Under the pieces are notes generated by a model. That model saw nothing but the letters and a program-made list of their open reading frames with translations, searched no databases and was not told where the DNA came from. Of a stretch of 64,000 nt of DNA, positions 5,621 through 48,845 are shown piece after piece. Both the position numbers and the translations under genes were made by a program. This DNA comes from Balanoglossus misakiensis (Eukaryota > Animalia > Hemichordata). How positions within the stretch are numbered: the first letter of the stretch is position 1; every line of letters begins with the position of its first letter. The stretch covers positions 7,677,625 to 7,741,624 of the forward strand of contig CM082579.2 of NCBI GenBank assembly GCA_040954595.2. Direction: 5' to 3'.

Positions 5621-5910
5621 CGCGAGGCTATAGGCATTGCATATATACGTGTAAATTGTCCTGGCAATGTTCCCTTTAAATGTAATAACAACAACAGCGT
5701 AATGTTTAGATGTTTATGATTAGAACTGTCATTTTCGATATCCGTTCCCAGACTCAGAGGGAACTTAACACAATTGATTGCCAAATGTACGCCCTGGGTC
5801 AAAAAATGTTCTCTTATTTTCTTGAAATCTGCTCATTTTTACTTATATGTTTGATTCTCCCCAATTGTAACCATTTATCTAAAATTTGCACTTTTAGATA
5901 AAAAAAGAGT

Positions 5911-8900: not shown

Positions 8901-9013
8901 ACGATGCAATACTTTTGTACAACGCTGTGAAGAACTACGTTGCCTCCATTGTAAAGGGGCATTATGGTATGTTTGTAAACTAATTGGTTATCATGATTCA
9001 CGAAAGAGGACAG

Positions 9014-9052
<39 letters not shown>

Positions 9053-12425: not shown

Positions 12426-12620
12426 TGTGTTCATTTTGAACAGCCGATGAAAATTGAAGACTCGACATATTTCGGTAGGATCGGTTGACAGGCGCAGAAT
12501 ATATCTTGGTGCAAAATGTTGTTGTTCCCGGTGTACCTCGTGTATGTAACACCTGTTTTTTCTCATTGCAGGTTATATTGTGTGCACAAGATTTGCCTCC
12601 TTATAAGAGAAGCGTGAGAG

Positions 12621-15600: not shown

Positions 15601-17608
15601 CCACCAAGCTGCCACCCATCTGGGATTCACTCACATGATAGTCGAGACAATGTCGTTATCCGTCAACCGCAATCTGTCGCCCTCACACCCTCTATACCGA
15701 CTCGTTGGGCCCCATTTGAAATACGTCATGGCTATTAACAAGTAAGTATTAGCGCTTTTGAATCGTGTAGCCCATCAGTATTGGTGGTGTCTAAATGTAC
15801 ATGGTATCTCGTAAAGTTAAGAAATGGGATGTTGTGCTCTACGTCAAATGGTGAAATCACAGACAAATAGAAAATTATTGTCTGTGGTGAAATCAATAGA
15901 CCATTTTCCGAACTCCACGAGACCCAGCGAGATCTCGCGTGGCTAGCCAATTTATATTGGAAGGATATTCTGATGTGATACAGGACAAACGATGGATGCC
16001 CCGTCGTGTTAAACTACACAAAAATTCGCTTTTTGTTAAATTTTGCCACCTATTTGAGTTTCATTCAAACTGTGACTTGTATCTTGGCTAGAATTCCGTT
16101 GCTACGTTAATTGAGTCTCACAAGATCTCGCTTTGTAACAACATCTACGTGTTTGTTCTTTCTCTCCTCCCACCCCCTCCCCGAAAAAAAGCTCCGCAGT
16201 AAACATCTTGATTGCGCCGAACGGCTGGGTAGACAGCGTGATGAGCATCGGCAGAGTTGGTATGCTGGAGATCATCAAACGAGGCTGGAAAGCGTGGAGA
16301 CTGGACGTGGACGGAAGCTTGCCGAACGACATGAAGGAACGCGGGGTCGATGACCCGGATGTGATACCGGAGTACCCGTTCAGGGACGACGCCTTGCTCA
16401 TCTACAAAGCTATCCAGAACTACGTCAGTGAAGTCGTTCGAAGTCACTATGGTAGGTGTACAGCCTCGAACCCGCCATAAGCCCTGTCTGTTCCTCAGTG
16501 CAGTCTCCTGGCAATGTGACTTCGGATTATTAATGATCAACTATCATATTTTTTCAAACTACAGAAACTGCTGCGGATTTAGCTGAAGACAATGAATTGC
16601 AAAATATGGCCAGAGATCTGACAACACTGCCACCAGAGGGACTTGGAGTCAAGGTACGCCAACTAGATTTGCAAAAGAAAAAATCACTCACTGTTTATAG
16701 TTTTCTTACTTATTATTCGGTCTATACCTCCTGCCTGCCTTTTTGTCGTGACGTGTATCTTTGCACCGTTCGTTCGTTTGCAGGGTGTTCCCGGAAATGG
16801 CAGTTTCACCACCTACGAAGACGTCATCCAGGTGTTCACGTCCATTATATTCATGAGCACAATCGGACACACTGCGGCTAACTACAACCAGTACGCGGAG
16901 TACGCCTACCCGCCAAATTATCCCATGCTTTTGCGAGGTACACCACCCAGAAACAAGGCAAGTACTTCGACATAGGATAAGGAAATTTGGAGTATCTTAT
17001 CAGGGACGGCGGCCATTTTGAATTTCAAATTTGAGGCAATTTCGCTCTCTCAATCAAAATTTTTATTCACAAATTTAAGAGAGAATAGTATAAAGTTGCC
17101 ATGAGCAAAATATGAGAAAAAGTTTATGACTGATTTTCGGTGCGCATTCTGACTTGATAGGAGCCGCTCACGGAGGGTGACGTCATGAAACAAGTCGTGG
17201 ACAAACCCCTGATGTTGAAGGTAGTGGCCATGGTTCACGTGCTGAGCCGTCAGAGTGACGACATATTGGGGAACAGCGTTGTGACATATCAGTACGACGA
17301 TATCGGCGTCAATGCCTACAAAAAGTAAGTCAAATGTCACTCCAGTACAAGTCTTATGATAATTGTTTACATGACCTAAAAAGAAAATGCACATTTTCGA
17401 GACTAAAGGACTGCAAAAAGGCAAGTGAACAGCGTTGGTGGGCAATATGCTATTAAAGGTAACATTTTCCTTGGCCCCTTCATCAATTTCCAGGTTCACC
17501 CACGAATTGCAAGAAATTGGCCGCATCATTGACGAGCGTAATAAGACCAGGAAGAGAAAATACACTTATCTCCATCCGGCGTGGGTTGCAAACTCAATCA
17601 ACGTGTGA
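12621..17608 (+). CDS. Lipoxygenase B, tandem paralog of A (12 exons, ~665 aa)
   Basis: Exons 12621-13100, 13537-13581, 13939-14064, 14602-14699, 14903-15035, 15169-15267, 15527-15741, 16192-16451, 16565-16653, 16784-16957, 17161-17324, 17494-17608 all match paralog A in size. Motifs: WMMAK, HQAATHLGFTH, GHTAAN and C-terminal NSINV. Confidence 0.93.
15895..15945 (+). repeat. Short dispersed repeat, related to 4064-4114 joined to 5627-5630
   Basis: aatagaccattttccgaactccacgagacccagcgagatctcgcgtggcta resembles aatagaccatgcattttccgaactccgcgaaaccctcagatatctcgcgag[foldback]gcta. Confidence 0.6.
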
Positions 17609-22230: not shown

Positions 22231-25200
22231 ATGGCGTCGTTCAAATCGCTGGGAATTGTTCTGTTATCTCTGCTTGTCATTCCGTATTGTGATGGCTTTG
22301 ACAAGGCTGAGTGGGTCCGCACCGCTTCAGTCAATACACCTGGTAAGTAAGTAAGTAAGTGAGTGAGTGAGTGAGTGAGTGAGTGAGTGAGTGAGTGAGT
22401 GAGTGAGTGAGTGAGTGAGTGAGTGAGTGAGTGAGTGAGTAGGTAGGTACTCTTCCACCCTAATATCATTTCCCCGTCGACTCCACAGAAAACAGCCATT
22501 CGTACTTAGACTGGCCGCGACTGCATTTCTCTGGCACTTTCTGGTTTGACTCCCCGACTGGCAACAACCTGTGCGAGAACTACGACATCAACACCTTCGA
22601 TGAGCGAATCAGGGCGGATCCACACATTCTTGGCTGGAACCCTGAGGGTTCGGCCTGTTTTCAGTTATTGGACTGTCAAGTGAGATCTGCCTGCTACACA
22701 GATGGTCTGTGTACGACCAATCGAAAAACAGATGCTGTCGTTGAAAAGCCTATTTATAGTAAGTCAGATGAACATTTTATTTTCAGTGTTAGCATTCAAA
22801 GAGCGTTCTTCTCTTTCGAGCTATAATATTATCTCAGAGATTTCCAAACAAGCTTTATTGGTTTCATTATCCGAGCTGTACATGTAAATGTGCACTGGCT
22901 AGTACCACTTACTTGTGTGCAAATTGCAGTTTATGTCATATACTAGTATACGACGTACCAAGTCATGTAGGTGTGTATTTCTAAACAGAAGCATCCGGGT
23001 AACCGTATCAATTTCTTTTACTCCATTAATAGGTAACGTCAACCGTCCCGATGCAAAGATGGCGGACATAGATCCAATATACATATCCGTGCCGACGATA
23101 TTCGGGTTGTCGTTGCACATACCTGGCGCCTTTTCGGGCAAACTTGTGGAGGCGCCGATGTCAAATTCCTACAACAAACTGTCGAAACGTGAGCGCAGTG
23201 GTCATATTGGCGCCGATTTCTATTCCTTGCTCGTTGATGTGGAATGGGAGATCGGTCAAGAGGGAAAGCACTCGAGAATTGTGAAAGAGCTCAAGGAACA
23301 AAGCCTGCGGAGCAAGACACCTAATGTTTTGTCGGTTAAATTCAATTTGGACATGTTCGAAGCCTTTTCCAAAAGCGGTACATTTGGAACAGGTCGTGTC
23401 GTTGGCAGCATCGGCGTCGCTGGACCTGCAGAGCCGCTGCACGACATACGTCACCGGAAGTTGCGCCCTCCAACATCCAGTAGGAAGTACGGGATTGCCA
23501 ATTTCCGCGTTTTCCAAAATCGCGGGAAGATTTTGATAGACCTCGGGAACAGTCTACCCTATAACGGAGAGGGACCCGATTCTGACGTCATCAAGGTGCT
23601 ACAGGTTGCCTATCCATCGGAGCAGGAGTCCGAGATCTTGACCTGTGACACACAAGTAGAAGTCGTTGGAAATATTGACTATGCAAGTAATGGATGGTAC
23701 GAGATCACGGCGGGTGTCGTCACTGTGCCATCGACGTCAGTGTTGACAAGGAGGCAGCGCAGTGAACTAGCTGATAGGCCCCTGCTCATAAGACAACTGA
23801 ACAACGACACCAATGCCTGCGAAGGGGTCGTGCTGGCAGAGCGAGTTGACGGCATGGCGGTCGGCATCATGGGAGAAAGGGTATTCCGACAAGACCCCGG
23901 TGATTCGTGGACGCTTCACGCATTCTCGACCAAATTTGGACGCCGAGCAGACGACCTCTTACTGGAGATCAAACCGCACGCATTGGTCGAAAACAAACGC
24001 ATGTTTTCTCGCTGTGGCGCGGGAAACCACGTGTCGTTCAACGAGCCACCCTCCGCTGTCGGCTTCGAAGAGCCGAAGAAAACGGATGAAAACGGGCAGG
24101 CAGATTTTGAATTCACTGGGTATGATCCCAAAAATCCCAGAAAAATCAAAGACGGTCAACTATACCTTTATGACATCCTGGTGAATAAATCCTTCACTTC
24201 TGATCTTCCTATAGTTATCTACATGTACGACGATTTTGTGGTATCAGAAGGCGGGCCGACCTGGCACCAGGACATTTATCCAATATTCAAAATGTATTCG
24301 AACATGTTCCCAAGCATGAACAATATCATCAACATGGCGTCGTACGATGACGTGTGTCGCAAGAAGTGGATGTTGGCAACGACCATGACGTTGCCCGCGG
24401 CGGACCCGCAGTACATGCCCGTCACCAGAGACCTGTCCAAGCGAAAGCAGCGGGCCATTCTGCAGTGGCTGGACGACCCCAAGCCGGGCGAAGTCCCGCG
24501 GCCCAGTCTGGAAGACCTGAAAAGGGACCTGCAGACTGCGCTGGAAATGGAGCTGTCCACGATCCCGCCGTACCTGACCGCCTGGCTGTCCATCAAGAGG
24601 GGGCACAACGTGGACATCTCCAACATCCTGCGCAGCATTGCCACCGAAGAGATGCTGCACATGACGCTGGTGGCAAACATCTTGAAGAGCATATGCGGCA
24701 GGCCAGTTCTGAACGAGAGGCGGCGGGTGCCGACGTACCCTACCAAGCTCCCCGGGGGTGTCCACCCACACCTCACCGTCTCCCTCGGGCGGCTCACCAA
24801 GGGACTCATAGAGGACGTGTTCTTGAAAATCGAGGAGCCGGACGACACCCTGCCGATACGGTTGCGCCAGAGGGTGCTGGCCGTCTCTCCAGAAATCGAG
24901 TCGGATTTGGAATCCGAAGTTCCCCTGCGACACCACAATCGCACAATTGGCCAGTTCTACTACAACAGGATATGGAAGTCACTGAGCTACCACGCCAGCA
25001 TCAACTCGAGTTTGTTTATGTGTGGAGACAAGGACACGCAGGTTACTGAGGGCGACTGGTACAGTCAGGCCTTGGAGAAGCCATTTGCAATCACCAACAT
25101 CGAAGAAGCAAGGCGAGCCATCGAGATCATTACAGAACAGGGGGAGGGAAGTTCCCCAACGCAGCCGTACGATTCCGATGGTAACCTCTCGCATTATTTC

Positions 25201-25737
25201 AAATTCATGGAGATTGTGATGGGCTACCGACTCGTGGTGGATTCGAACTTGCTGCGTTCGACGCATGAGGAGGAAACGCCCGACGAAGGCAGCTGCGACA
25301 TCGCTTATTCGGAGAGGTTCGCGCGTAGCTTCTGTGGAGACGGCGGGAAACCGTGCGACTTCATGCGTGTGCACCGCAGATGCAACGTACCGTTCCACTT
25401 CACCGGGGAGCGGGTGTCCTTTCACGATGACGGCATCTGGCCGATAGTGGACAACCCGAGCAGCGAGCGATACCCGAAGGACTCCAAAGTGGAGCTTCTA
25501 TCGCGCCTCTTCAACAGAGAATACTCGAACTTGCTGCGCTGCATCCACGACACCTTCAACGACAAACCGCGAGGTATGCAACGGTGCATGTCGATCATGG
25601 CCAGGATGGAGTCACTCGGTCGCCAGTTGGTCAGTACGCCGATCGCGTTTGGCGGGGATCCGAGCGTGGGCCCGAATGGGGCACCGACTTTTGAGTTTGA
25701 TGAGATAGCCTTGCACCCAGAAGAGAAAAAGACGTGA
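22231..25737 (+). CDS. Secreted VioB/RebD/StaD-like protein with a C-terminal ferritin-like domain (3 exons, ~1028 aa)
   Basis: Exons 22231-22342 (signal peptide MASFKSLGIVLLSLLVIPYCDG), 22489-22758 (SYLDWPRLHFSG..PTGNN) and 23033-25737 are joined by phase-1 GT-AG introns; 3087 nt in frame. Motifs AKMADIDP, YMPVTRDLS, ELSTIPPYL..A, EEMLHM..VANIL, EQGEG, SHY..F and APTFE follow the order I recall for the VioB family. Confidence 0.82.
22343..22448. repeat. (GTAA)n(GTGA)n tetranucleotide repeat filling intron 1 of the VioB-like gene
   Basis: The repeat starts at the splice donor (gtaagtaagtaagtaagtgagtgag...) and runs for about 100 bp. Confidence 0.92.
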
Positions 25738-26822: not shown

Positions 26823-28055
26823 TTAAAGTAGCAACTTAAAATGGCGAGTCTCAAACTTCTAATGACCATGCTATTGGCCAGATCTCATCTTTCCATGGAT
26901 AAATTTTTACAGGTGACCTTATACTTTAACTACAGTCCCCCTGGCCGATACAGTGGAAGCTGTTTCAGGAAGTGAACATAAAGAACACCAGTATAGAATG
27001 TGGTTCCCTGGCCGGGCCTCGGAAGCAGCTGTTATAATTTGAATTTGCCTGATGGTGCTCCATTGTGTCCTTAATAAATGGCGGGAGCGTATCAGTAAGG
27101 GCATAGACAGTAGTTCTGCAGCTACGTTATGACAGAACATAGGTTTAACTCTACTGGTAGTTGTCATGAATTCAATGCATATTCATAGTTTCGTTTGTCG
27201 CATTGCGCTTTATTTGACCTGGCGTGTGCGGTCAGTGCGCAGGCGTCCGTGTAATTGTTTTTTTTCCGTATAAAATTTGGAAGTCCACGCGTATGCGTCC
27301 CCGTGGTGTTTTTTTACCCAAGCAGTTGCTGGAAGGAAGGTGGATACGACGCCCAAGTACATGTAAGTTTTGAACGTGTCAATGCGTTAGTGAAAGTTGG
27401 TAGTGCGAATTTGAGGGGATATTATGATGGATTTTGATGGTAGCCGCCGTCGTGGATGAATACCGTTCCCTTTGAACCGGTTGTTCGGGAACTCTCTGTT
27501 GAGTCGCGGCTTCTCGTGACACGCAGCTTTGAATGAATATACAAACATCACTGTTTCTTCCCTGTCATTAAAATTATCGAACGGAATTGTCATTGCAAAT
27601 ATTTCACAGATGGTATTCTGTCGTTTCGTTAATTACTGACAAACGATACCAGAGCTTTCTTTTCTGACAATAAAATATCTTGAAGATCCAAAGTGTCTCT
27701 TGGTGGCAAGCAAATTTTCCTCACGCCGTGACACATAAATTGTCTTAGAGAAAAAAAAAATGCAAAGACAAATTACAACAGAAAATATACAACTACAAAT
27801 GACATTATCAAGAAACTTATTGTTTTTGCACATTCAAAGGACGGATTAAATATATAGTTAACTGAGTTGAGCTGAGCAAGTATAATTGTCGCCTTGCACA
27901 ATAACGATAAACGTTTAAATTAAGCAAATTTCAGACGTTATTTCATATAACCATTACTTTTTGGAGACAGTTTTATCGTTATTTTCAAATAGTTGTATAT
28001 GTCCCTCTATCCCGCCCTTTAATAGACAATGCAACCCAATCTTGCATTATTGTGG

Positions 28056-28735
28056 CGTTCTCACTGGCACGTTTACACCGGTGCTACAACGGTGTAGATT
28101 TGACACCGACGGAAAAAAACAAGTGAGAACGCTTTACGCCGGTGTTACGCCGGTGTTGATTTGCGACGGCGATGGGTGGCGGGTCAGGGCCAGTGCTGGG
28201 CCAGCGCTCCGACGCAAATAGTCAGTGAGAACGCAAAGATAAACAAACGCCATTCAAAAGCGCCACCCTGCAGTGACTTTTGGGTATGTTTATTAGGTAT
28301 AGCCCATTGTCTTTGGTCAGTTTCCATTGTTAAGTCAATCACACTGGACGCGAGTGGTTTTCAAACCATTCGCAGTTTGCCAGGTCTGCAACACTTCTGT
28401 CTGCTACCAACTTTCGGAAGGTTCTCTCCATCACCGAAAAGCTGAGGCATTTTCCATTTATGGATTAACATTCATTTACTTCTAAACATTATCAAAACTG
28501 TCACAAAGTCGTCTAGAACGCATATGCAGGTATAGAAACTGAAACATGTTGCTGTAATGTCCTCGACGTCCTCAATTTTGTTAGTTGCCGTGTTGCTAAA
28601 CATGGCCATTTAGACGGTGTTTATTTCAAAACAGTGTCCAAAAGTTTAGTGTGTGGACGCACTGTGGGCTAATCCCCTGTGTTTGCAAAGAGTAAACACT
28701 GGCATAACACTGGTGTCGAAACTTTTAGTGAGAAC
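28056..28735. mobile_element. Degenerate MITE-like element
   Basis: Left end gttctcactggcacgtttacaccggtg is loosely inverse to right end cactggtgtcgaaacttttagtgagaac. Internal gtgagaacgc copies occur at ~28123 and ~28226. Confidence 0.35.
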
Positions 28736-28898: not shown

Positions 28899-31800
28899 TC
28901 ATGACGTTACTACTGTCGCGCGGTGCCGCTGTAACTGTTTAGAAAACTCTCTCAACTTCTCCTTCAGGTCAACACGTCCCACTTTCTCCAGTTTGTCTTC
29001 AAGAATTCTTGTATCGTACACTAATAATAAAGCATACTCTTGCATCACCGAGAAGAGTGTAAAGGGATGGGTTATTGCTTCTTGACGTCCCTTTGGTATA
29101 TCCACTTTTAACAGAAATTTTATTTGTTCAAATTCATCTGGTAATGGCAGAAACAGAATGGAGAGAAAGATAGATGATATATAAATGACATACGTTTAAA
29201 GTCTCATTAGTGCCTTATCGCTAACCTCTACAAGGGTTACAAAATATCAATCCGCATATATTTTAATACGATCCGTCTTCAGAAACAATTAATTAAACTA
29301 TCTCCCAGAAGCGCCTGACTTCATACGAGAAAAAAAATGACTTTGATTTTCGAGTATTCTAAGAAAGTGTCTGCCTGCCTGCCCGCATTCCAAAAATATC
29401 ATTTTTAAATAGCATAGTATAGCATCATCATCTATCATATTAACTCACGATTGTAAAAACACAGTGTCGCACATTGCATGCCTACCTTGCGAAAGTTCCT
29501 GTGAAATTTCATGTAGTATATCCTGCAGCATTTGTTTCCTTGTGTCTTCAGCAGTCTTCATCTTGGGCGTATTACAGGGGTTAGTCAGTGAAAAGATAAC
29601 GAAAAATAGTTCACTGTGTAATAAACATTCGTTAGTTCTAAATGTGTACGTAACGAAGTAACGTTTACGTACTAGTATCTTGCTAAATTAAAAATATAAC
29701 TTAGAGTTACCTGCTCTATCGGTGGTGAGATCGGGGCATTTTCTGCAGGAACAGTTACTCCCAGCTGAAAGTTATAATATTGTAATTGCATTAACATTGA
29801 GGAAATATTGCTTTTGGAGTTACAAGGGCTCATTGGTGTCAATGATCGCTCACGCCGCTTTCTTTATTTCCTAGGCATGTGTAATCTCTTAGAAACGCCA
29901 TGTATATTTTTCTCACCCAGTCTCTCTTCATCTGATTCATGTTCTTTCTTGCTTCACCCTATTGGTGTAAAATGACACGTGGTTAACACAGTCATGTCAT
30001 GATCACAAACGTAGTGGCGAAGGCTGAATATCTCATTCACGGACCCTAATGTCTTCGGAGACACCAAGAAGGCCAGTAGGGTACACGTGGATTGAAAAAT
30101 AATAACTAAAATTCCGTTTTATGTATTAATAAACAATAATACTTACTGGTTCCACCTGTGGAGGCACAGAGACAGCGACATCAGTTCCACCGGGTTCACT
30201 TGTATGAACCTGCAAAATCACCATAATAGGGGAAAAGTTGAGAAGGCCAATAGGGTACACGTGGATTGAAAAATAATAACTAAAATTCCGTTTTATGTAT
30301 TAATAAACAATAATACTTACTGGTTCCACCTGTGGAGGCACAGAGACAGCGACATCAGTTCCACCGGGTTCACTTGTATGAACCTGCAAAATCACCATAA
30401 TAGGGGAAAAGTTGAGAAGGCCAATAGGGTACACGTGGATTGAAAAATAATAACTAAAATTCCGTTTTATGTATTAATAAACAATAATACTTACTGGTTC
30501 CACCTGTGGAGGCACAGAGACAGCGACATCAGTTCCACCGGGTCCACTTGTATGAACCTGCAAAATCACCATAATAGGGGAAAAGTTGACAACAGAAATG
30601 GTATCATGAATTCCTTTGGGGGTTTATAAAACAATAGCTCTAGACGCCAGTGCTTCACTTAACTTCATGAGCACCTGCTGGCTTGGCAATGTTGTGAAGT
30701 TTACGGAATACAGAATACTGACTTGTTTGAAAGGTATTAGTTAGATGGAATGGCGAAAAGTCACTAAAGGTCACTTTCACATGCCCCTGCAAGATTTGGA
30801 GGAAGGGGTTGTACTAAGTCATGTTCGTTTACACGCAATTATAGTTCGAAAAGTCCTTTTTGTCGACGCTCTAATGGATTGCACTGAATAGTTACCGTCT
30901 CTTCATCTGAGGGTGCTTCGTGTATCATTTCAATTTCTTCTTCCTGATTTAAAAAAAAAAATTTGAACACATCATCATCGACATTGTTCCCGAAGAATGT
31001 TTGTCGTGGTGTACATGTATAGTGTTATACAAGATAACAAAAAACACATTATTTGAGAAGATGATGATGCACAGAACAAATCTAATCCATTTTGCGCTTA
31101 CCTGGACCTTTCGGAGCTTTTTGTCTCTCACATTTGTTTTCTTTCTGTTCTTGGATCGTCGCTTCGATCCACAGAATATGAATATAGCTATTAATACGAC
31201 AATGACTATTCCACCGAGAATGCATACAATAATGATGACCGCCCAGTTATTTCCATCACTCCCCGCATCCGCTACATGTGAAGGAAAGCAACAAAATAGG
31301 TGAACATCTATGTTAGAAAATCGCAAATTTCACCGGTTTATCCTAAATAACAATCAGGATTTTTTATTCAATTATTTTACTATGAAAATGATGTAAAGCG
31401 AACACTGACCAATGGATTAGGCCTATGTCATTGTAGGTCATTGTAAATTGATGTGAGATTGGCTTTTTTTGCCTACCATGGGCAAGATTGCTCTGCAAAA
31501 TGTAGGTCACATTAGCTCTGTCCTAAAAGTTAATGTCGATTGTTAAATTGGCTATACACGTACCTCCGTATACAATCTTCACGTAAAGAACAGAACTATT
31601 GTCATTGGTATACGTAGTTTGCAGACGATGGTTTCCTTGAAGTTTGTCCGACATCACAAACATCAATGACTGGTAACTAGCATTAGCTGTGAGAAACACT
31701 ATGTCTTCAAAATCGTCCTGGATGTCACAATTGAAAGCAAGCCCATCTTCCAACCAAGCGTCGGCTATAGGCCAATTCGCTAACGTCTTATTATATAAGG

Positions 31801-33242
31801 CGACATATTTTGCATCAGATCCGAATGGTTGGATAACCGATGCTAATCTGCCTTTCAGGCTTGATACGGTCAACACACCAGACTTAAATGCTTGAGAAAC
31901 AAAGAATCAAAAGTCAACATTGACGGTAGTGAACATTTAACTTTTCAGATCCTCTGAACTCAGAACACAAAAAAACCTTATAAGCAGTGCGAAGAAACGG
32001 GCTTTGAAGTGAGAGGGCGCTCAGCTCTGAGCTTAGGCTATACCTTGATGTAAATTGAGGGGTAAAATAGTTTGCGTGCTTTTTCCATTGCAAGTTATGA
32101 CAACACGTAACTTGGCATGTGTCATTTTCAAGTGAAAATATACAATGTATTTTCACTGAATAATTAAATCAGGGACTCACATGCGTTTCTCATGACGGTT
32201 TCTGCAACTTTCTTTTTGCCTTTGACCCACCATGTGTAGTGTACGTCGAAGGGGTCCGAGCGATAGTTTTCAACCAACAGCATCTTATATCCCAGGATAT
32301 CCAGTAATTTGTACCCAGATGTCATCGCGCTGGAGTCGTCACATGCTAGATACCCCGTTTTCTCTATACACGTGAACCGAAATGAGTGATTGATTACAAA
32401 AGTGAATGCGTGAGTCAACGAACGAGTAAGCCGAGAGGCACCCCCCTTCCATTTCGTGGCGTGAAACATTTCTGGACTTCCGATAATTCGTTTTTGAGTC
32501 AAGAATTTAGTGTCATAATGACAAACAGAAAACATCGCAAACAACCATAAGCAGGTAGATAAGATACAAGAACTAGATGTATATAATACTTACCTGTATC
32601 ATTCCTGCTCACGCACAGGGTTGTGGTAGCGTTAACCGACACACTGCTGTTGAACAAAAGCTGGCCATGACCAATGAAGTAAACATCTTGATGTGGTTGA
32701 ACGATTACTACATCTTGCCCATCGACCTTGTAAACTGTAAGCGTGTGAAACACACGAAAATTGAGATGTTTTACAAGAAATAGATCACGCTCACGCTCTA
32801 AGACACGGCAAAAAGATTTTCATAACGGAAAGAGGTCAGTAGTTCAAGAAAGTGTGATGACATTAAGCTGAGGGGTTTCGATTGAGATATGGGATTTCGT
32901 TACAAGTATCAAAAGTACATGTATAAGTAAAATCATAGGCGATCACAAATTTTAACATTGTGGTAATAACCATCTTCTAATTCATGACACCTGTCGACAC
33001 AAGCTTTAGAATCCAGAAAATGCCTTTGCCCACAGTGACCTAGTTTGACGTTTACATTGTATAGTCTATCTGCGAAATCACCATAAAATTATACGAATCA
33101 CCACTGAAGTATATGAGCACTCAGGGTGTGTTTAGGGTTTGTACTTACCCATGAGATTTGGACAAGGATAATATGCACACATTCTTTCCATAAGAAGGGT
33201 GACAACAAGTGCCAATCGAAGTACATGTCCGTGTCGACTCAT
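28899..33242 (-). CDS. Type I transmembrane protein with a C-terminal death effector domain (12 exons, ~506 aa)
   Basis: Exons 33242-33149, 32734-32594, 32363-32181, 31890-31564, 31271-31102 (TM WAVIIIVCILGGIVIVVLIAIFIFC followed by KRRSKNRKK), 30943-30896, 30557-30495, 30383-30321, 30209-30147, 29764-29711, 29561-29486, 29137-28899 total 1521 nt with all phases compatible. The C-terminus LHEISQELSQDEFEQIKFLL..LFSVMQE..VGRVDLKEKL has the DED pattern. Confidence 0.75.
30067..30588. repeat. Three near-identical 174-bp tandem units, each holding a 63-nt exon
   Basis: Units start at 30067, 30241 and 30415. On the minus strand each reads ttgcag|VHTS(E/G)PGGTDVAVSVPPQVEP|gtaagt. Confidence 0.92.
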
Positions 33243-35519: not shown

Positions 35520-37682
35520 ATGAAATTTGGAACCTTTTCCGCCATTTGCATGGTTTGCGGCGAAATCATCGTTCACTCACATTCAGTGATACGTAAAGTC
35601 TCTGCCACTGAAAATTTTACAACCCCCGAAAAAACAACAACTTCGTCTAACATGTCTGAAGTAGGTCGTTCCAGAAATAAATATTTGTGTACGTTTGACC
35701 ATTTTGGTACTCGTTACACATGCACGTACTACTTACACGGTAGAAAATAATTCGAATCCCGACTCGGGAGTTTCGTATGTCAAACCACCATATCGTTACA
35801 ACCTCTATCATAAAGAGAATCTTAAAGTATGCATAACTGGGAACAATATATAGGTAGGCGTTTTGAATGTAGACTTTTACAAATAAATCAACTATAAAAT
35901 TTAACTAACTTCAAATCTGTATAGTGACGCTGAAAGAACGTAACCATGGTACTGTTAAGGACATAAGCCATTTTTGGAAGCAAAGTTTTTGGCTTAATAA
36001 AAATCTGTAGTATATCTATTGTTGGGTTAAATTGTGGTAGAGGGCGCTATGTGGGAGATCCTTGCTCTACCACCTCAAGACAAATGGACTTCGGTTAGCA
36101 GACGTTCTAAATTTAGACGTTTTGAGAAAACTTAAGAAATAAGTTTGGGTTGACTACCTAGATCAAGATTTAGACATGCTGTGACATTTATAGTTGAGAA
36201 TCCTTTCAGTTCCCAGCGAATTTGTGGCGGCGGAATCCATTCTTGTCAACGAGGGAAGCAGAGCGCAGCTGACTTGCGTCAAGCAGCCGCCGCTAGAGGG
36301 CAGACTGGTGACGGTGAGATGGGGGAAAGATGGCGGCATATTCATCGCTCAGAAGTTTGAATCAGGGGTGGAGCACTACGTCGAGGTTGGCAAATATTCC
36401 ATCGACGACAGCATGAGCCATCTGCTGATATACAATGTCGAGGCCTCAGACGAAGGGGACTACACATGCTCGGCTGAATTCGACAGCGGTCAAGCGGACG
36501 AGAGCGATACAATTACACACCATACCATTACGTTACAAGTTAACACGAGTGAGTACATTGCCAAGTCATGTGATTCACACTAGTAATACACTGCACTCTT
36601 ACCGTATGCAATAATTTATTAAACATGTTTTATTCACTGCCTTTAAACCTTTATTCTCAAAATATAAACGAAAAAAAATATATTTCTTAAATCCAACACT
36701 ACTCATCAATAATGCTTATTAAAGCTCCAGTAACTCTAGGCTAAAATTTGGGCATGGGAGAAAAATATCCCAAAATAGCTAGAGAATTTATCATGAAATT
36801 ATAACATAAATCTTGACCTCATCCAATCGTGTAATGACCTTTTATTTCATAAAGGTTCGGAATTCCCTCTCAAGGATTTAATGACGACATTGAAACTAAC
36901 GTAATCTATTCATTTATCGCATATACACCACAGGTAATCCAGTTTCTGGAAACGCAACAAACGGTATGCTATATATTTATATTATTGCAATTTACGTTTT
37001 ACGTCAGAGTGCGTATATAATGATCATGTGAAATACTCGTGAACAGTGATATCTTGGAAAATCCAGAGTTACTGCATCAAGATGGATCAAACTTGATGTT
37101 ACCAACGTATGAATGTACTAAATGCCACTTGACGGTTTCTTTTCAGAAGATGGTAACTTTTTGTCATTCTTATGATTTGTTCGTTATTCTTCATGAAAAA
37201 AAATCATTTTAGACATGCAACAACTGTCCAGTTCCACCTCAAGACTCTACATTTATATTTTGATCGGCGTTTGCGGAGCCCTTCTTCTGATTGTCATTGT
37301 TCTCTTTTCTTGGTTCTTAATCATTCGCAGAAGGAAGGTATGTAGCTGTGCAAACTTTATCCTATTGTTGATTTATTGATATTTGGATAAAAAATGGCGA
37401 CTGAATTTACATTTGTCAAATCGACGTCTCCAATAAACCAATAGATCAATAAAACCGACCAACCAACCAACCAACCAACCAGTCAGTCTATCTGTCCCAC
37501 TTTTCACATTTGTCCCTTTCTCTTTCTCTGCATCTATTACTTCCTCGACGATGAAGATGCGGGCACGTCAGACATCTCAGAATACCCGCACTACAGGTAT
37601 ATACAAACCTGTGACGCAAAATCGGCGGCAAAACAAACGGAAGAACAGGACAGCAGGCGACCGGAAAGGTTACACAGTTTAA
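35520..37682 (+). CDS. Single V-type immunoglobulin-domain membrane protein
   Basis: Ig exon ~36210-36548 (LTC..VRWGK..LLIYNVEASDEGDYTC), stalk exon 36934-36963, TM exon 37213-37337 (YIYILIGVCGALLLIVIVLFSWFLII-RRRK) and a probable tail exon ~37557-37682 (..GIYKPV..GYTV*). The leader exon from ATG 35520 is tentative. Confidence 0.7.
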
Positions 37683-40600
37683 CCCGGGAAAATGCAGGAA
37701 TTTCAACACATACATGTGGTGCAGAAACGACTAGGATTATAAAACTATATTTTAATACAAAGCCAATACTTTAGCAGTTCTATTGAGTACATGTATTTTA
37801 GAATCACTTGATTTTAATGAGCTCTCGTCTAATCAGAATGCCGGATGGTAGCATGATTTAATATGGTATAGGTGTTATCTCTTTAATGTTAACAATAGAA
37901 TTTGGTTTCATAACCAATAGTTACTACTATTTTCTGGTGACTACCATTTTACAAGCACAATGTATATACATTTGTACATTATAAAATCAAAGCTACCAGA
38001 GCAGCGCCCCCACCACGTGTAAGGTTCGGATAGCATTGAGACATGTATGATCTGTCAACATTGCCTTCAGTATTGTTGATATCCTGAATAGTTCGTTGTC
38101 AGCATTTTAAAGTTCAACCGGGTTTTGGCAAATAGTATCTGAAATACGTACATACTACCATCAATTGTTACTGTGCAGAAAGCGCCCCGAATGGGTCGTT
38201 TTTTTTTAAACAAACAAATTACTTGCTGTTGCTATGACATCGATATCACAATTGTGGCGATCGCGTTGCCATCAACAGTGTGGGAAATGAGAAACCCCTC
38301 CCACCACAAAGCTTTGGCGTCATACCAATTAACTGTTTGATTAGTCAGGCCTTCGGCGAAAACAGCGGGGTGGGTATGTTAATTTTGAGACATGTGTGTC
38401 TATTGAGCGATTGGGAGATATATACATGTACCTGAGTAAAGATTTACAATGCAATCCGTGAAGAGATTAAGTAAGACCGAAAATGCACTATTGCGCCTTT
38501 CATGAAAACAGGTGGGAATTAATTATCTCTGACAGGCGGTACTAGTTATTTTAGTGATCCAAAAATACATACCTGCTGTGTTATCATTCTGAGGGTCCAA
38601 AAGACGTCGTACTTTGGCAGGGCAGATACAGTACATGCTACAGTTATATACCAATTAAAAAAGATAATCGAATTATACATGGACATTTTGAACTAACACT
38701 CGGGTCAATTTACCCTCGTTGATAAGCAATTGGACATCCGCTTACTGGGTAAAAATCGTGACTGTCGGATCGGACAAGTGCTTGTCCACTTGCCCGACTC
38801 TTGTGGACTATAAATTCAAAATTGACATTTCGACGTACTCCAATTCACTGCTCGTCAGTTTATTTCGCCATAGGCTCCAAGATTAAATCTGTTTATCGAA
38901 AACGAACTTTGGTCGTAAAAACAAAACGCACTCTTTGGGACGAAGTTAAAACAGGCACAGTACATATACGCAAGTAGGACAATATAAACGGCAGCCGGTT
39001 GCATACATTTTAGCCCGTGTTTCGTAGTTGTGTCTGCTTACCATGTTTTCTCTTTGTCTTATCATATATTGTAAATCCTTCATTTGTTGCAGTAGCGTTC
39101 AAACACCGGCATGCTAGTTGAGGGGCCCCTTTTATCAGTGGTATCGGTGTTTTTTGGCATCACTGGATTGAGCTCTCGTCCAATCAGAATGGGTCGGGGT
39201 AGCATGCATGTCATCATATTAATTGCCGTTTTTGGCAGCGCAGGTACATCGCTAGGGCTGTCACTGTCCATACACACGGCTCTGTTTTTACTGGTACCAG
39301 CGTTTGGGTGTCTGTGCAGAGAAAAAGTGGGACAAACCGTAAGTCTTTGAATTTCTCAAATAACCTCTCCCTGGGCATCTTAAATTTAAGTATTCATTTG
39401 TTTTAAACTTCCGCATTATACGCCGAAGTCGTGCACTTTTCTAGAATGACTTGCAAACAAGTTCCGGCCGAACTTCCGTCCCTTCGTGCTGGGATCCGTT
39501 GCTAGGTGGTATATGGACTCAAAGGCTGGTAATAACCACGGCGTCGTTTTGAACTTTGCCCACAAAACTATGTCGAACATTGCCCACAAAAAGTGTTTTT
39601 CGTGTCTGATCACTGTTGGTTGCTAACTGAATATGGCGTTGGCATAAGTTTTGACAAATCTCATAAACACTTGTTTGGTGTATAAGCGAGCTCTGACTGA
39701 GTTAACTTCTGGTTTCGTGGGCGAGATACAAAAGTTGCCAAAACAATTTTCGCGATATCAAAAGTAAAAACTGTTACGCGAGGATTAATTTTCGCGTTCT
39801 CTTATTTCATTCACTGCATCGTTATCTCCGAATATCGTTTTACGCGATTTTTTTATTTATACGTGTTTTGGGCTCTCGCATATTTCGCGAAATTTTATTG
39901 CTGGCGAAAATACTATATAAGTATTGTGTGTGTTTGCGAATGGGGTGGAGTAGGTGGGGTGCGACGGGCATATGTTTCGTGACCAACTAGCGCCGCTTGT
40001 TATGACAATCTCTCGGTCCAGTTCACTCAAACGAGAAATAAACGAGTATATACGGTATGCACAAATGTGGTGGCGCCGGGGTCAGTCGTGACAATAGCCA
40101 CGCAGCACACACACGAAAGCAGCGGCGGCTGCCAAGAAGGAAGTACACGTTGGCTTCCATGTTGCATGCGGTACCAGCTTGCGAGCGACGGACCTATCCC
40201 CGCGTTAGCTTTACCAGATATAATTATCATGGCGCAGGGAGATTATCGTGTATCTGGAGGTATGTTTTGTTGACGAAACACCTACATGTATATACGGTAG
40301 TGCTAAAATAGATGTTGAACATTGCACCGTTTACCTGTCGCTGAATCACTCTGTTAGTCGATTTGATTAAAACAGTCCAACTCGAAGCGAACACTCAAAC
40401 TCTGCACTGTCGTGCACGTTCGAGGACGCAACTACATTCTCAAAATCTGTATTAGCCTGGCCTGCTCGTCGAGGGCTTATGATAAACATAGTACACGTAC
40501 TTTGCTTCCTATTACTGTATAGTACAGCGCTTCCTTACTGCAGCATTTGCATATGCACATCCGGGGACTTTATCGTTCGGACGGCCTGGGGGATCCAAGA

Positions 40601-41977: not shown

Positions 41978-42171
41978 CGTTCACATTTGAGAGAGAGAGA
42001 ACAGCAATGGAATTTTGTCTTATTTCCCTCGGCTCTGTCTCTCACCCTAATATTCTGTTGTCCATATTTTAAATAACAGGGCTTGCCGATAAAATCTTCG
42101 CGGCAGAGTTGCCCCAAACTGCGCCAACGGAAAAATCTGCTCCGAGAAAACGTGGTGAGAAAACGAGCGGA

Positions 42172-45100
42172 ATGGGTAACGGGCAGGGAATGGTCCGAGA
42201 CCAACAGCCGACGAAGGTAGACGATTTCTTCCGCGCCAGTTCGGCGCCGCGTACCCGGAGCCTCGCCAGTGCCATCATACACGCGATCAGAGACTCCCAA
42301 GACGACGATGATGATGGCGACGTCGTGTTCGCCGACGGCCGAACAACACTGAGCCAGCTGGACCACGGCTGGGATCCCAGCGACTCGTCACCCGGCGTGC
42401 GGATCCTGGACGACGGCATCACCGCGGTGCGGGCGCAGGCGGCGGGCACCACCGACGCCTCGCGGGGCAAGAAGGCCTACCAGTCCGGTTGTCACGTCTT
42501 CCGCTTCCACTGGCCCAGAGAAGAGCGGGGCTCGCACGCCACCGTCGGCTGCGGGACCTCTCAGGTGCCGCTCACCTGCGCAGGGTACTCGGCCCTGGTG
42601 GGAAGCACCCCAGACTCGTGGGGCCTGGACATCTCCGAAAATAAACTGCACCATGCGGGTAAAGAATGCGGGGTGTACCCTACAGGAAATAACCACTTAC
42701 CGGACACGTTTTACATGGTTTTAAATCTCGACGCCGGTACGCTTAGGTAAGTTACAGTCTCAAGTTAAAAACCCACTAAGTGGCGATCTCTTCAGGAATT
42801 TCTGATGTAGTACCGGTTAATGCATGGTTACTGTGTTAATGAGTTTCTATCGGATAGAATGATAGTGGCCATATCACTTACAAAATGCACTTACTTTGGA
42901 GAACCATTTACGGCCGTAGATCGCAAGTAAACTGGAACTAACTATGTTCAATTGGTTTGAAATGGAGTTGAAATGTAACTTAAAGACACCACGATCCTCT
43001 TTCAATCGTGCGTTCAGTTTCAGATCAACAAACAGCGGAGGGTTGGGGATAGCCTTCAACAATTTGCCGAAAGGCGATAAAGCGCTCTGTGTGATGGCCA
43101 GTGCAACAGCTGGAGACAGTCACGTCCAGATGAAGTACAGAGGGAGTGAAGGTAAGAGCGTGTTTTAGAATGATAATATGTGCTGTTCCGATTACATGGT
43201 TTTCAAAAATAGGGTAGGTAGGCAGGGAATTTTTTTTATTTTGCATTTTTTAATTTCTCTGGCCGCCGTAGTGTAAAAGAATGACGTCATATATACGTAT
43301 TGGTTTATCTTTTTCCAGCATATTTATATAAAACAAATATTCACCAATAAAGTCCAATACGTATATCTAACATGGGAAAAGGGCCTCGGAATTAATTCAT
43401 TGACGCACTAAGAAAAAGACGTCGAGTAGTCATATAAAACGTGTGATTCCGCCACACAACGGAGATAAATGAAGTCTTGGTTTCCTTAATATTGGCAGGG
43501 ACGCATGTTGGGTTGCTCCAGAGACAAGATCCAAGATCGTTTCCAGAACCAGCGGATCCGACGTTTTATACGTTCCACTCGAGGTGTGGCGAAAATGCTG
43601 AGGTGTTGTTCGGCGGTAAAATGGCCAGGCGTGTTGAGTGAGTTTCAATACTGTGCAACCTTATATACATGTACACTCTTCTCGCAAACCCACGAAGCCC
43701 TAGTCTCGGTTACATACACATACATGTACGTGGACAACTGTGAAACAAGGTGACATTAATCACATTCCCTTTAATTTTTCCCCCCTCGGCAGTGCCGACG
43801 ACAACCTCGACAAGGCAGTTGTGGTCACGTCGCAGCCCCTGGAAGACGGGGAGCTGTTCCAAGTTCGACTGGAGTCCAAGGCTTCCAAGGGTCACGGCTC
43901 CCTCGAAATTGGCGTCACCACCATTCCGGCCAACCAGCTATCCTTCCCGTCCTCCATGACAGACGTGAAGATCGGGGTCACTTTCATGTGGAGCGGCCAG
44001 GTTATTTTCAGGAACGGCAAAGAATTTCTGGATCTTGGTCATGATTACAGTAATATTACGGTTGGTTGCTTACTTGTGACATTATATCGGTTATTTTACT
44101 TAATTTTTCCAACGCCATAACTGTGGCGTGGCCCTGATTTTCCATGGTATATTTTTTGTTAGCTTGCACGGCCGATTGTTGCAACTCAACTCATACCCTG
44201 TATATGGGCATAACGTGTGACTATACGAACGACATAATTTTTGGTACTGACCGAAATGGTGGAAGGATTTTCTGTGTAGAGGGTGTGAGTTGCCTGTTAC
44301 AACAAACAATTTGTACTTTGTCACGCGCTGAAAATGCATGTCAATGAGAATATTCTAACCACGCCTTGGTTTATGACAGAGACCCCAATATATATGACAG
44401 ACACTGGGGTTTTTATGAACTGCCGTCTGTACCGCCTGGTAAATGCAGAAATTGACTCTCCCGAGAACTTTCTACATTTTGTCGTCTGTAAACTATCGAT
44501 CCCAATGAACGGGGACATTTGCAATTCGTTGTCCAGCGTGTATCTATTCTCGGCTTGTCAAATCTTGTCCGTTACTATGGCAATTACAAGTGTGAAAACT
44601 AGATGACATTCCACGGATGTCTTTTCTATGGCGCGCTTCCCCGATGAAGTTCCCCGGGAAAACAAAGATTTCTTTTATGCACGGACCCACGATGCGCAGA
44701 TACAGAGGAATTATACCTGACACGGATAAACCTTTGTTTCACCTTAGTGGTCGAGCGAACACTTGAGATAACAGTGCTGCTGTGTGCCGAAGTAAACAGA
44801 TTACAGAAGACTGCGCTCATGATATTCAAAAACAACATGCAAGTCTGTTAACAATATGACGTGGTGATCTAGGTCGCATTGGTCATGTGGCTAGCACATT
44901 TGAATTTCGTGCGACGATGTAACATCGCTCGATTGATGAACCCGAGCATGTGTGCACGTTTGAGGGCAGAGTCACCATGATGTGGATTTGTACATTGATG
45001 CAGGCGCGGGGGGGGGGGGGGTGTGATATTTTGGATTCAAAACCAGGTGGACATTCAGCAACGCCAGAACACGTAATTTATAATGTGCCAAAACCGACCT

Positions 45101-48100
45101 TGGCTCTCTACTCGTGATCGTCAACCTTTGATTACTTGCGGTCCGCCTTAGCATAGACAGTAGACTGTCTATGGCCTTAGGTAAAAGTTGACAATGGTAT
45201 GTGTGCGCGCGCATTTCTCAATCAGGGTCAGGCGGAGGTATATAGCCCTGTAAAGTTGTAGGTTATGGTAGATATTTATAGATACGCCCTATATTGAATA
45301 ACATTACTTTAAAGCTATATATGGAATTAACCTATAATTGTTTGTGTAGGTTGGCGACAGAATTGGTTTGAAGATTGATGCAGGAAAATTTCGTTTTTAT
45401 TTCAACGATCGTTGCCTTCCTCAAGAGATCAGTTTATCGGAAGTGCCATCCAGGGTCTATGGTGTTGTAGATATATGTGGTCAGGCGGAGAGAATCACTA
45501 TACTCGGTGAGGACTGGTGTATCCATCGATATGTAAATGTAATTCCCAAGGATTCATCCTTGATCACAAAAAGCACAATGAGTTGTTTGGAGAACACAAG
45601 ACAAGATGCAATACAATTTATAGCAACACAATGTGACGCAATGCGATGCAGTGAAGTTGTATCTTTATTAGCCTAGGCTATACTACTTCAGAGCAGATTT
45701 TTCAGATCTATTTTTCTCTTGAATATAAATACAGTACATTCTGGCCTTTTGGCGATTCTCTTTCTTTCACCATGATTACGCTGTTATCACCGACTCCATA
45801 CTGTAATGAGACGTTCACCATGACAATTTTCTGTAAATTTTCGAGCTATATTAATTCCGCTTGGACCATCTCCGTCAACAGGGTCGGACCGACCTGTCAG
45901 CAGGTTGTCCGTCGCGCCTCGGCGAAAAGAGGTGGTGCACTCTGCAACTCCGCTGTCGATCATGATGGGAATGAGATCCACCATCGACGCACTCAGAGAC
46001 ACGGCATTGGACGTTGCCATGGTTGCGCATGAGATCGACATCACCATACTGAAGCCCTACTATGCCAGTGACGGTGACGCGGCTCTGCGGACGCAGTACG
46101 GCGACCATTTGGCGGATCTCGCCGCCGCCGAAGAATTCGCCAAAGTGCTGAAGCGACTGTCAGAGGGCGCTGCGACGACCGACGAGGGAAGATGGAGGGC
46201 CGAACAAAACATTCGGCTGGCGTGCTGGAATTACTCTAATGTCAGTGTCAAGATGGCGGTTCAAATCGGTCAGGCCGGACTGCTTTCCGTTTTCCTGGAT
46301 GACTTGGATAAGTACGGGATCCCTCGAACAAAAAATGAGGTAAATTCCATAAACTGTACCACAGGCAAATCTATCTATCTGTCTGTCTGTCTGTCTGTCT
46401 CCGGGGTAATTTAGATCCCAATCTGTAGATGAGTTGGTCCTGGTTTCTCCATTGTCAGCAATGATTTTTATTAAGTTCTTTCTTTACCCAGAAACGCAGA
46501 TTCAACGTTCTGTCAGCGCTCAACATTTTACACAACTGCGCGAAGGCAATAGAGAACGGTCGGATCTATCGTGATCTCAAGGCCCTCGGAAGAATTGCCA
46601 AGTTTTTGAAATCCGACGACAAAGAGTACGTGATGGTTGCCGCGCTGACGGTGTCGTACATCTGCGAGGACGACCAGATGGATTCGGTGGAGATGGACAC
46701 TAGGGCAGCCAAGCATATTTTGAGCGTGCTGAAACGGGCGCTGGACTCCCCGGACTTGTACGGGCGGGCCGACGAAAGCGGCTACTCCGTGTTGGAGTTG
46801 ACGCAGGGACTGAGTCAACTGGCCATCAACGACCAGAACAAAGCTACCTTGATGGAATGCGGAGCGCTGCCGATGATGACCAAAGCCGCCACCCGAGGAG
46901 GGCCGATGGAACAAGAGCACGCCGCCGACGTCATGTGGAGGCTGGCGCAAAGCGGAGAGGGTGCGCGCAAGAAAGTGGAGAGAGATGCCGCGGAGACGCT
47001 GACCAGGCTGAAAAGGAGTAACAGCGCCCCTGTACAAGAAGCAGCACAGCGAGTTTTGTTTACGATTCAACCTAGGCAGAATTTTGTCGGTGGAGGTGAG
47101 TTTACGTTATTCTTGGATGTGTTTATTTGTTTGTTTGGGATGGCCTGTCTGTCTGTTTTTCTTGTCGTTGTGTGTGTGTCTATGTGTGTGCATGTGCGTG
47201 CATAGGCCTATATACAAACGCTGCTCACATGTCCTGTGTTCGAGTTTTGGTATCATTCTCGTTGCGCGACGCTGCACCTGCTCGAGAATATGCTAATGTC
47301 TTTCTACAGCCATTGGTGACAAAGCGTGAACAGTTCAAGCCTTGGCATCACCAAAGCAAAAAGGGTGATTGACTGTTTTTCTTACAGGAAGGGCAGCAGA
47401 GAAGAGAGAACCTACTGACTGTGAATATAGATCACTGTGCAAACGTTTCTTGAATACCATTGATTTGGAAGGTAGGAATATTTAGTCAAAGTTTCTCATC
47501 GACGGCGTTAAAATTGCCACCCCACCGAGAGTAACTGACAGCGTGAATCCCTATTTTCATTGGCATTTTCTCTCATTTTCCGCTTACGCCTTCTCTCTTT
47601 TAAAACCAAAAATTCTGTAACACCCTCTTCCCATACAGCGGATTTTTTCAACCCTAAGTACGACTCGTGCTACTGTGAATCGTGTCGCATGACGAGAGAA
47701 GATTTCTTCTATTACTACCGAGGAGAGCCCGCCATGATTTATGGTCTTCCGGTTGGGTGGTGTCGCTTCGGTTTGCAGTAAGTTGTATTTTCTTGTTGCC
47801 TCCTGCGGTCCGAGAAATTTTGAAAATCGTTTTCCATCACCCCATTTGAAAGTAGTGATTACGAACAGAGACCCTGGACGCCCCCGATATCATTACTTTG
47901 CGGCCATCGAAGGACTGTGAACGGATGTAATACGATTCGAACTGTTGATTGTTTTCAACACCGTAACAAACAGGTGACACCATTCGTGGCATTTATGTTC
48001 TTTCAGCATACACAGGCGCCGAGCTGGCGCTCTCCGGGTCTTCCAGGACTGGCACATTGCCTATCACGGCACGACCGTGGGCTCCATCAAACCAATTCTG

Positions 48101-48845
48101 CAAACAGGTGAACTACTGTTGCCAGGTGTGTACACATAAAATGTAAAGTTATGTTCCGTTCGTGTATACACTTTGCATTGAACAGGTTTCTGAAGGCGGC
48201 CATACCTTGTCTTCTACATGAAGGACGTGTAACACTAACATAATGGTTCCCTGCCTTGACCAGTTTTTAAAAATAAATTTATTGCTGTTTGTGTAGGTGA
48301 CGTCGCTTACGGGGGAATGCAAGTGAGCGAAGGAGAAGGACATTTCAACGACAGTTGGAAACCTACAGGCTTTGATACTAAAAACATATTCATGTCTCCG
48401 TCTATTCGCTACGCGGGTATCGACTGTTACTCCAAACCCCATACGTAAGTTCTCGTATATTAGAAAAACATAGAGGGTAGAAATATTATCCTGGGTGTAC
48501 CTTAAAATATTAACCCCATTGTGAGAAAAGTGTTACATACCCTCTTTGAAGATTTTTCAATCGCGTTCGTGTAGTAAAATCTGCATCGCCGAATTCGCTT
48601 GTTCACTTAGTGTGTCACTGTTTTCTCCTCCTTTATTTAGATTCACAGACAGCCAAACCGGCAGAACTTACCAAGCCCAAGTGGCTTTCCAGATGTGCGT
48701 ACGCCCCGCCAGCTACAAAGTGGGTAAAGACACGGTCGGGGTGACCTATCCGTTAGATCCAAGAATTGACAACCAGAACATCGAGTGGTACACCAAGGAA
48801 CGTGGCGCCATATTCCTGTACGGACTTCTGGTTAGACTGGTATAA
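42172..48845 (+). CDS. SPRY - NHR - ARM-repeat protein with a NEURL4-type ADP-ribosyltransferase-like C-terminus (12 exons, ~1009 aa)
   Basis: Exons 42172-42746, 43018-43151, 43499-43637, 43793-44060, 45350-45506, 45882-46339, 46492-47095, 47388-47471, 47639-47777, 48007-48125, 48297-48444, 48641-48845 total 3030 nt in frame. SPSB-like SPRY (HGWDP..TDASRGK..RGSHATVG..SWGLD), NHR (FHSRCGEN..GSLEIGVT..VYGVVDICG), ARM-like helices, then CYCESC..LPVGWCRFG..AYHGT..SPSIRYA..VRPASY..IEW. The frame is open back to an acceptor at 42080, so an upstream exon is possible. Confidence 0.8.

Follow-up and report, generated by a model that had tools for sequence, protein, structure and literature searches.

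Gene structure and genomic context

The window, the whole 64,000-nucleotide stretch of Balanoglossus misakiensis DNA that was analyzed, carries on its minus strand a gene whose predicted product is a type I membrane receptor with one death effector domain (DED) at its C-terminal end. The gene runs from an ATG at 33242 to a stop codon that ends at 28899. When the model was rebuilt from coordinates, it comprised 12 exons with GT-AG boundaries at all 11 introns and matching phases, and the resulting frame of 506 amino acids was interrupted by no internal stop, the sole stop being terminal. The original prediction had proposed a phase-consistent 12-exon gene here, and its strand, start, stop and transmembrane (TM) exon at 31271-31102 proved exact. 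The introns measure 111-414 nt, and the region reads as a compact-intron animal genome. The predicted protein consists, in order, of an N-terminal signal peptide, an ectodomain, a TM helix, a Lys/Arg cluster, a Pro/Glu-rich linker and a terminal helical domain (Table 1). Third-position GC is 0.42 in the receptor gene, versus 0.63-0.85 in six of the eight neighbours measured.

Table 1. Features of the receptor gene and its surroundings. Positions are those of the window. Scores are for the alignment to Ptychodera flava XP_070548542.1 with the exon in question dropped; the full model scores 508.
Feature	Position	Strand	Description
Exon 1	33149..33242	-	ATG, predicted signal peptide (about aa 1-23), first ectodomain residues; phase 1 out
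Exon 2	32594..32734	-	Ectodomain half 1, part one (aa 32-78); phase 1-1; score 418 without it
Exon 3	32181..32363	-	Ectodomain half 1, part two (aa 79-139); phase 1-1; score 398 without it
Exon 4	31564..31890	-	Ectodomain half 2 (aa 140-248), single 327-nt exon; phase 1-1
Exon 5	31102..31271	-	TM helix (about aa 258-282) and basic stop-transfer; phase 1 in, 0 out
Exon 6	30896..30943	-	Acidic linker; phase 0-0; placed by GT-AG and frame; homology neutral (score 507 without it)
Exon 7	30495..30557	-	63-nt Pro-rich linker exon, first copy of 174-bp tandem repeat
Exon 8	30321..30383	-	Linker exon, second copy of 174-bp repeat
Exon 9	30147..30209	-	Linker exon, third copy of 174-bp repeat
Exon 10	29711..29764	-	Pro-rich linker; phase 0-0; short match to XP_070548542.1; score 498 without it
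Exon 11	29486..29561	-	End of linker and DED helix 1; ATG directly at acceptor
Exon 12	28899..29137	-	Remaining DED, 11-residue tail, stop
AATAAA hexamers	28625 and 28294 (28289..28625)	-	Candidate poly(A) signals downstream of the stop
Rejected exon candidate in intron 1	33069-32930	-	Open stretch, four Cys, good acceptor, ends in a stop; no homology support as an exon
Tandem repeat	30067-30589		174-bp unit, 3.0 copies, 99% identical, intron sequence included
Inverted-repeat element	28040-28230		Short; downstream of the receptor gene (read by eye)
Ferritin-like gene	22464-25737	+	Nearly intronless, convergent with the receptor gene; PF12902 at 185 bits
Ig gene	36194-37774	+	Single-pass, divergent, ~3 kb upstream; V-set exon at 32.8 bits, above the Pfam cut-off; reading by eye adds a TM exon near 37216-37337 and a tail containing Tyr
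Tandem PLAT genes	5902-10137 and 12618-17500	+	Two genes, near-identical PLAT exons (Pfam match for the first); exons after PLAT read by eye as lipoxygenase
Neuralized gene(s)	42073-48845	+	Multi-exon; Neuralized, weak armadillo matches, further exons
Tandem array	4152-4402 and 5387-5600		97-bp/20-bp array; recurs reverse-complemented about 1 kb away

Neighbouring genes encode PLAT-domain, sulfotransferase, ferritin-like (PF12902), Neuralized and RPAP2 proteins. The ferritin-like gene resembles bacterial VioB-type enzymes and is a candidate for horizontal origin. The tandem array and the inverted-repeat element are possible miniature transposon ends.

The N-terminus is moderately hydrophobic (best 19-residue Kyte-Doolittle window 1.35), and the signal peptide called originally is kept as predicted; exon 1 aligns with the hydrophobic N-termini and the YxCP motif common to two Ptychodera flava proteins described below. 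The TM helix reaches 3.58 in its best 19-residue window and is followed by the Lys/Arg cluster, in agreement with the basic stop-transfer proposed for it. Roughly 125 poorly conserved residues separate the TM helix from the DED. All five linker exons (6-10) are phase 0-0 and any subset of them keeps the DED in frame; skipping all five leaves 409 aa, with the DED in frame and no stop. Each copy of the 174-bp repeat bears one 63-nt in-frame linker exon, with one codon differing in the first, and the repeat lengthens the tether by 42 aa. It may have arisen by duplication very recently, may be polymorphic in length or may be an artefact of assembly.

Homologs in Ptychodera flava

An HMMER scan of 1.84 billion representative sequences with exon 4 alone, which contains no DED sequence, yielded seven hits, none of them a lancelet protein and none an oyster protein by name (three of the seven clusters are unnamed). 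The top two were XP_070548542.1 (498 aa, E = 2.5e-11) and its paralogue XP_070548568.1 (418 aa, E = 1.1e-09), both RefSeq "uncharacterized" proteins of the acorn worm P. flava, whose genes are likely neighbours. XP_070548542.1 is colinear with the model end to end (29% identity over 495 aa, E = 4e-53). Like the window protein it has this ectodomain, a TM helix in the same position and a terminal single DED (59.7 bits), and it ends nine residues past that domain; no other cytoplasmic domain was found in it in Pfam at E<=10. The linkers of the two proteins cannot be aligned.

Identity to XP_070548542.1 is 34% in ectodomain half 1, 39% in half 2 and 40% in the DED, with z scores, against 500 shuffles each, of 27, 30 and 27; the linker, at 0.7, is not significant. 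The DED matches the ectodomain in conservation and the linker does not, a pattern that fits selection on the DED. No alignment gap lies within four residues of eight of the 11 exon junctions, one of these being the junction inside the DED; the other three, among them the TM-to-linker junction, adjoin a gap.

The search for paralogues that had been suggested thus turned up a DED-less one in P. flava. XP_070548568.1 shares the ectodomain and the TM helix, and has a Ser/Pro/Thr stalk before the TM helix and a duplicated cytoplasmic segment. It may be a decoy or a truncated gene model. Its lack of a DED suggests that the ectodomain can work without one.

The terminal domain

Exon 12 alone matches the Pfam DED profile (PF01335) at 44.3 bits (E = 2.2e-11, profile positions 16-82 of 82), above the gathering cut-off of 35.9 bits that we used as the threshold for membership. 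The other Pfam family matched at E<=1 was ApoB100_C, at 13 bits only. Models for Death, CARD and PYRIN matched neither exon 12 at E<=1 nor XP_070548542.1 at E<=10. The domain that the original prediction had called a terminal DED, and had proposed to set against the DED, death-domain and CARD profiles, therefore scores as a DED. As also proposed, it is split over two exons: the junction of exons 11 and 12, in phase 1, falls after helix 1, and the helix missing from the exon 12 profile match is supplied in the alignment by exon 11.

Comparison with solved structures gave the same assignment. All 14 matches of exon 12 to PDB sequences at E<=1 are DEDs (nine from caspase-8 and five from PEA-15), though individually they are weak, the best having an E value of 0.066. 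With a family profile the best nine matches were all caspase-8 prodomain entries (E = 1.2e-05 to 9.6e-04), and cFLIP (0.15) and FADD (0.53) ranked behind them. In an AlphaFold model of XP_070548542.1, residues 398-485 form six helices, but at a pLDDT of 39-47.

The window protein has the expected DED motifs: Glu429 in SQDEF, KFLL (Phe435) and RVDL at 482-485 (Arg482). The KFL and RxDL segments align to caspase-8 DED1; Glu429 is presumably the triad acid, as placed by the FADD spacing that we assume. The motifs singled out in the original prediction are thus present here, but two are altered in XP_070548542.1, which has KHFL for KFL (His for the FL-patch Phe) and RADM for RxDL (Met for the last Leu). 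Both species retain the triad acid and Arg-x-Asp. To judge from these residues, the binding surface of the DED has drifted between the two copies and is conserved only in part.

The ectodomain

The ectodomain spans ~235 aa, with four Cys and seven N-x-S/T sites. It had been described as ~230 aa without assignment, and this description stands: searches with XP_070548542.1, XP_070548568.1 and the three ectodomain exons found no Pfam family at E<=10, Ig families included, and there was no PDB sequence match. Divergent Ig domains can, however, escape profiles. Half 1 is encoded by two exons (324 nt) and is not a repeat of half 2. Ig domains are often encoded by one phase 1-1 exon, as half 2 is; its single Cys means that it would lack the usual Ig disulfide.

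Structural comparison, which the original prediction had suggested for the ectodomain, gave a partial answer. For residues 20-248 of the Atlas model of XP_070548542.1, eight of the ten structure matches listed were Ig Pfam clusters (TM-score 0.36-0.43). For residues 137-248 all ten were (V-set, SLAM family and nephrin-like), with TM-scores by query of 0.61-0.70 over 98-111 residues, but every one of these fell below the bar for naming a fold, and the feature scores for the same residues were at most 0.84, a level often reached by shuffled proteins. Two AlphaFold models of our own, built from 3-4 sequences, had pLDDT values of 40 and 37, and structure searches with these low-confidence models were empty. 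The models suggest that the membrane-proximal half 2 is likely an Ig V-like beta sandwich, and that the whole ectodomain is probably Ig-like; we lean modestly toward an Ig-like fold that binds ligand for half 2. The Ig gene ~3 kb upstream has no detectable likeness to this ectodomain.

One gene or two

We estimate the probability that the DED and the TM helix are encoded on a single fused mRNA at about 0.9, judging from the structure of the locus and its P. flava counterpart. The strongest line of evidence is that the DED-free exon 4 query retrieves XP_070548542.1, which itself ends in a DED; this protein is a gene model, so the fused architecture in P. flava is model-based. Phases point the same way, since phase 0 marks the end of exon 5, the start of exon 11 and both ends of every exon between them. 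So does the exon 11 acceptor: a branch-point-like CTGAC lies 27 nt upstream of it, and there is no AG to compete with it within 45 nt.

Alternatively, the locus could hold two genes, one for a short-tailed Ig-like receptor resembling XP_070548568.1 and one for a separate 104-aa DED-only protein starting at the exon 11 ATG, the fusion being a modelling artefact in both genomes. Exon 11 does open with an ATG (29561), a Met also stands just before the DED in XP_070548542.1, the ectodomain and TM helix occur without a DED in XP_070548568.1, and the linker is not significantly conserved. However, exon 5 runs without a stop into a GTAAG donor, and the interval from there to exon 11 is only 1.5 kb and is taken up by five phase 0-0 exons with GT-AG boundaries. 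The exon 11 acceptor is well formed, and a protein that is only 29% identical was independently annotated with this fusion. We regard the two-gene arrangement as very improbable. The original claim of TM helix and DED in one gene is thus supported by the domain order kept in P. flava and by a frame that holds with any set of linker exons. To splicing into one mRNA and location at the cell surface, taken jointly, we give about the same probability as to the fusion.

Proposed function

We propose that the single-gene product would act as a receptor and FADD in one chain, with the DED function of FADD built in. Clustering by ligand would gather DEDs under the membrane, and the gathered DEDs would likely seed a chain of DED-bearing initiator caspases without an adaptor. 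The cytoplasmic stretch of ~125 residues would serve as a flexible tether, giving the DEDs the freedom to pack into a helical array, and the DED-less P. flava paralogue would be a natural decoy or co-receptor. There are precedents for the central step in the available portions of two papers: a single DED, that of FADD, recruits procaspase-8 via a hydrophobic patch oriented by the E/D-RxDL triad (PMC4558505), and in amphioxus caspase-8 and FADD1 bind each other through their DEDs, the caspase being able to kill HeLa cells (PMC3196919).

Signalling through DED-DED contact seems to us quite probable. For the more specific reading, in which a caspase-8-like protein is the direct partner and the outcome is activating, we consider the odds even; adaptor-free recruitment of caspase-8 is plausible. 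The retention of the acid, KFLL and RVDL argues for direct recruitment, as does the place of caspase-8 prodomains at the top of the family-profile ranking. The substitutions of the patch Phe by His and of RxDL by RADM in P. flava argue against it, as do the five PEA-15 entries among the 14 PDB matches. PEA-15 is a single-DED protein known as an inhibitor.

The change in the FL patch between the two orthologues bears on two other readings. The DED might recruit a DED-bearing adaptor or scaffold (FADD via its DED, DED-ASC, DED-NLR or DED-TRADD-N), leading to inflammatory or NF-kB-type signalling with death only downstream. As far as the accessible text of PMC3196919 goes, the DED partners of amphioxus extend beyond caspase-8 and FLIP to DED-bearing ASC, NLRs and other caspases; the ASCs and NLRs have DEDs where pyrin domains would otherwise stand, and they bind caspase-1/2 by its DED-DD prodomain but do not bind the caspase-8 prodomain. 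Hemichordates and cephalochordates have expanded sets of DED-TRADD-N proteins (PMC8195603, in part). With so many other DED proteins in invertebrate chordates, the choice of partners is wider than caspase-8. The closest solved DEDs are nonetheless those of caspase-8, though sequence likeness names no partner, and we consider this route unlikely. The altered patch would also suit a membrane-tethered inhibitor, a lone DED that, like PEA-15 or short cFLIP, caps or sequesters FADD/caspase-8 DED chains and shields the cells expressing it. Such a protein would be expected to have a single DED without an enzyme domain, as this one has; PEA-15 is among its PDB matches, and short FLIP forms and viral FLIP block the DISC via DED surfaces (PMC4558505, in part). 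However, a conserved, folded ectodomain of 235 aa (z 27-30) exceeds what an anchor needs, and a DED-less paralogue seems to fit a signalling receptor and its decoy better than a decoy and a second decoy. We rate tethered inhibition marginally lower than recruitment of an adaptor.

If direct recruitment were correct, the family might represent an old invertebrate-deuterostome class of adaptor-free death receptors, in which an Ig-like ectodomain reads a cell-surface ligand, the DED nucleates caspase-8 filaments and a tandem DED-less paralogue is a decoy. Death receptor and decoy would then form a pair with no relation to the TNF receptor family; at present we consider this reading doubtful.

Comparison with known systems

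Mammalian surface receptors reach caspase-8 by way of a death domain and FADD. The contrast drawn originally with Fas and TNFR1, which carry a death domain and need FADD, is right. Like the TNFR-family death receptors (Fas, TNFR1, DR4/5), the window protein is type I, has a terminal death-fold domain and presumably assembles when clustered, but it has built in the DED that FADD supplies to them. It is not itself a TNF-family death receptor: Pfam finds neither TNFR Cys-rich repeats nor a death domain. FADD, PEA-15 and the caspase-8 prodomain share with it a DED bearing the acid/RxDL triad and the KFL segment; those proteins are cytosolic with an N-terminal DED, whereas here the DED is C-terminal.

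The uniqueness implied by the original prediction was too strong, since TM+DED architectures are described for oysters and a sponge (PMC8195603, available portion). Crassostrea virginica has about 50 Cys-rich ectodomain-TM-DED-TRADD-N proteins (Kaur et al. 2021, PMC8195603), and supplement file 4 of that paper has 18 "TM+DED" places, of which the two considered here are both Amphimedon TM+DED+TRADD-N models. As in the window protein, the DED of the oyster and sponge proteins is cytoplasmic on a single-pass protein, with no death domain between TM and DED. The oyster proteins, for which that paper's evidence, so far as available, is computational, differ in their Cys-rich ectodomain and in following the DED with TRADD-N and then variable effector domains. 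In the window protein the DED stands alone and terminal, with no TRADD-N or effector domain after it (the stop lies 11 residues past the Pfam match), and the four ectodomain Cys, shared with the P. flava family, do not make it Cys-rich.

A second parallel is the amphioxus "shortcut receptor" idea, based on cDNA-backed TNFR-TM-caspase fusions (Zhang et al. 2008). There, as here, domain shuffling has fused a receptor to a downstream apoptosis module, and an adaptor is bypassed; the amphioxus proteins carry the caspase itself, and the architectures covered in the available part of that paper include no TM-DED protein (PMC2575513). Neither a lone terminal DED behind such an ectodomain nor this family appears in the accessible parts of the literature searched (including PMC8662601, PMC11463336, PMC12052993 and PMC6321704, and few subscription papers). 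The receptor family with a single terminal DED is real and conserved, and it appears to be undescribed. On its sequence, the receptor is a variant of the known death-fold shortcut receptors, with a function that we infer throughout.

Such a protein would give extrinsic death in invertebrate deuterostomes a further entry point, one outside the TNFR family. A natural single-DED receptor also poses the question of whether a clustered, membrane-held single DED can nucleate the caspase-8 DED chain and set its polarity, and the acorn-worm pair with and without a DED offers built-in controls. Consisting only of an ectodomain, a TM helix, a tether and a DED, the receptor makes for a cleaner test than do the oyster proteins with their many domains.
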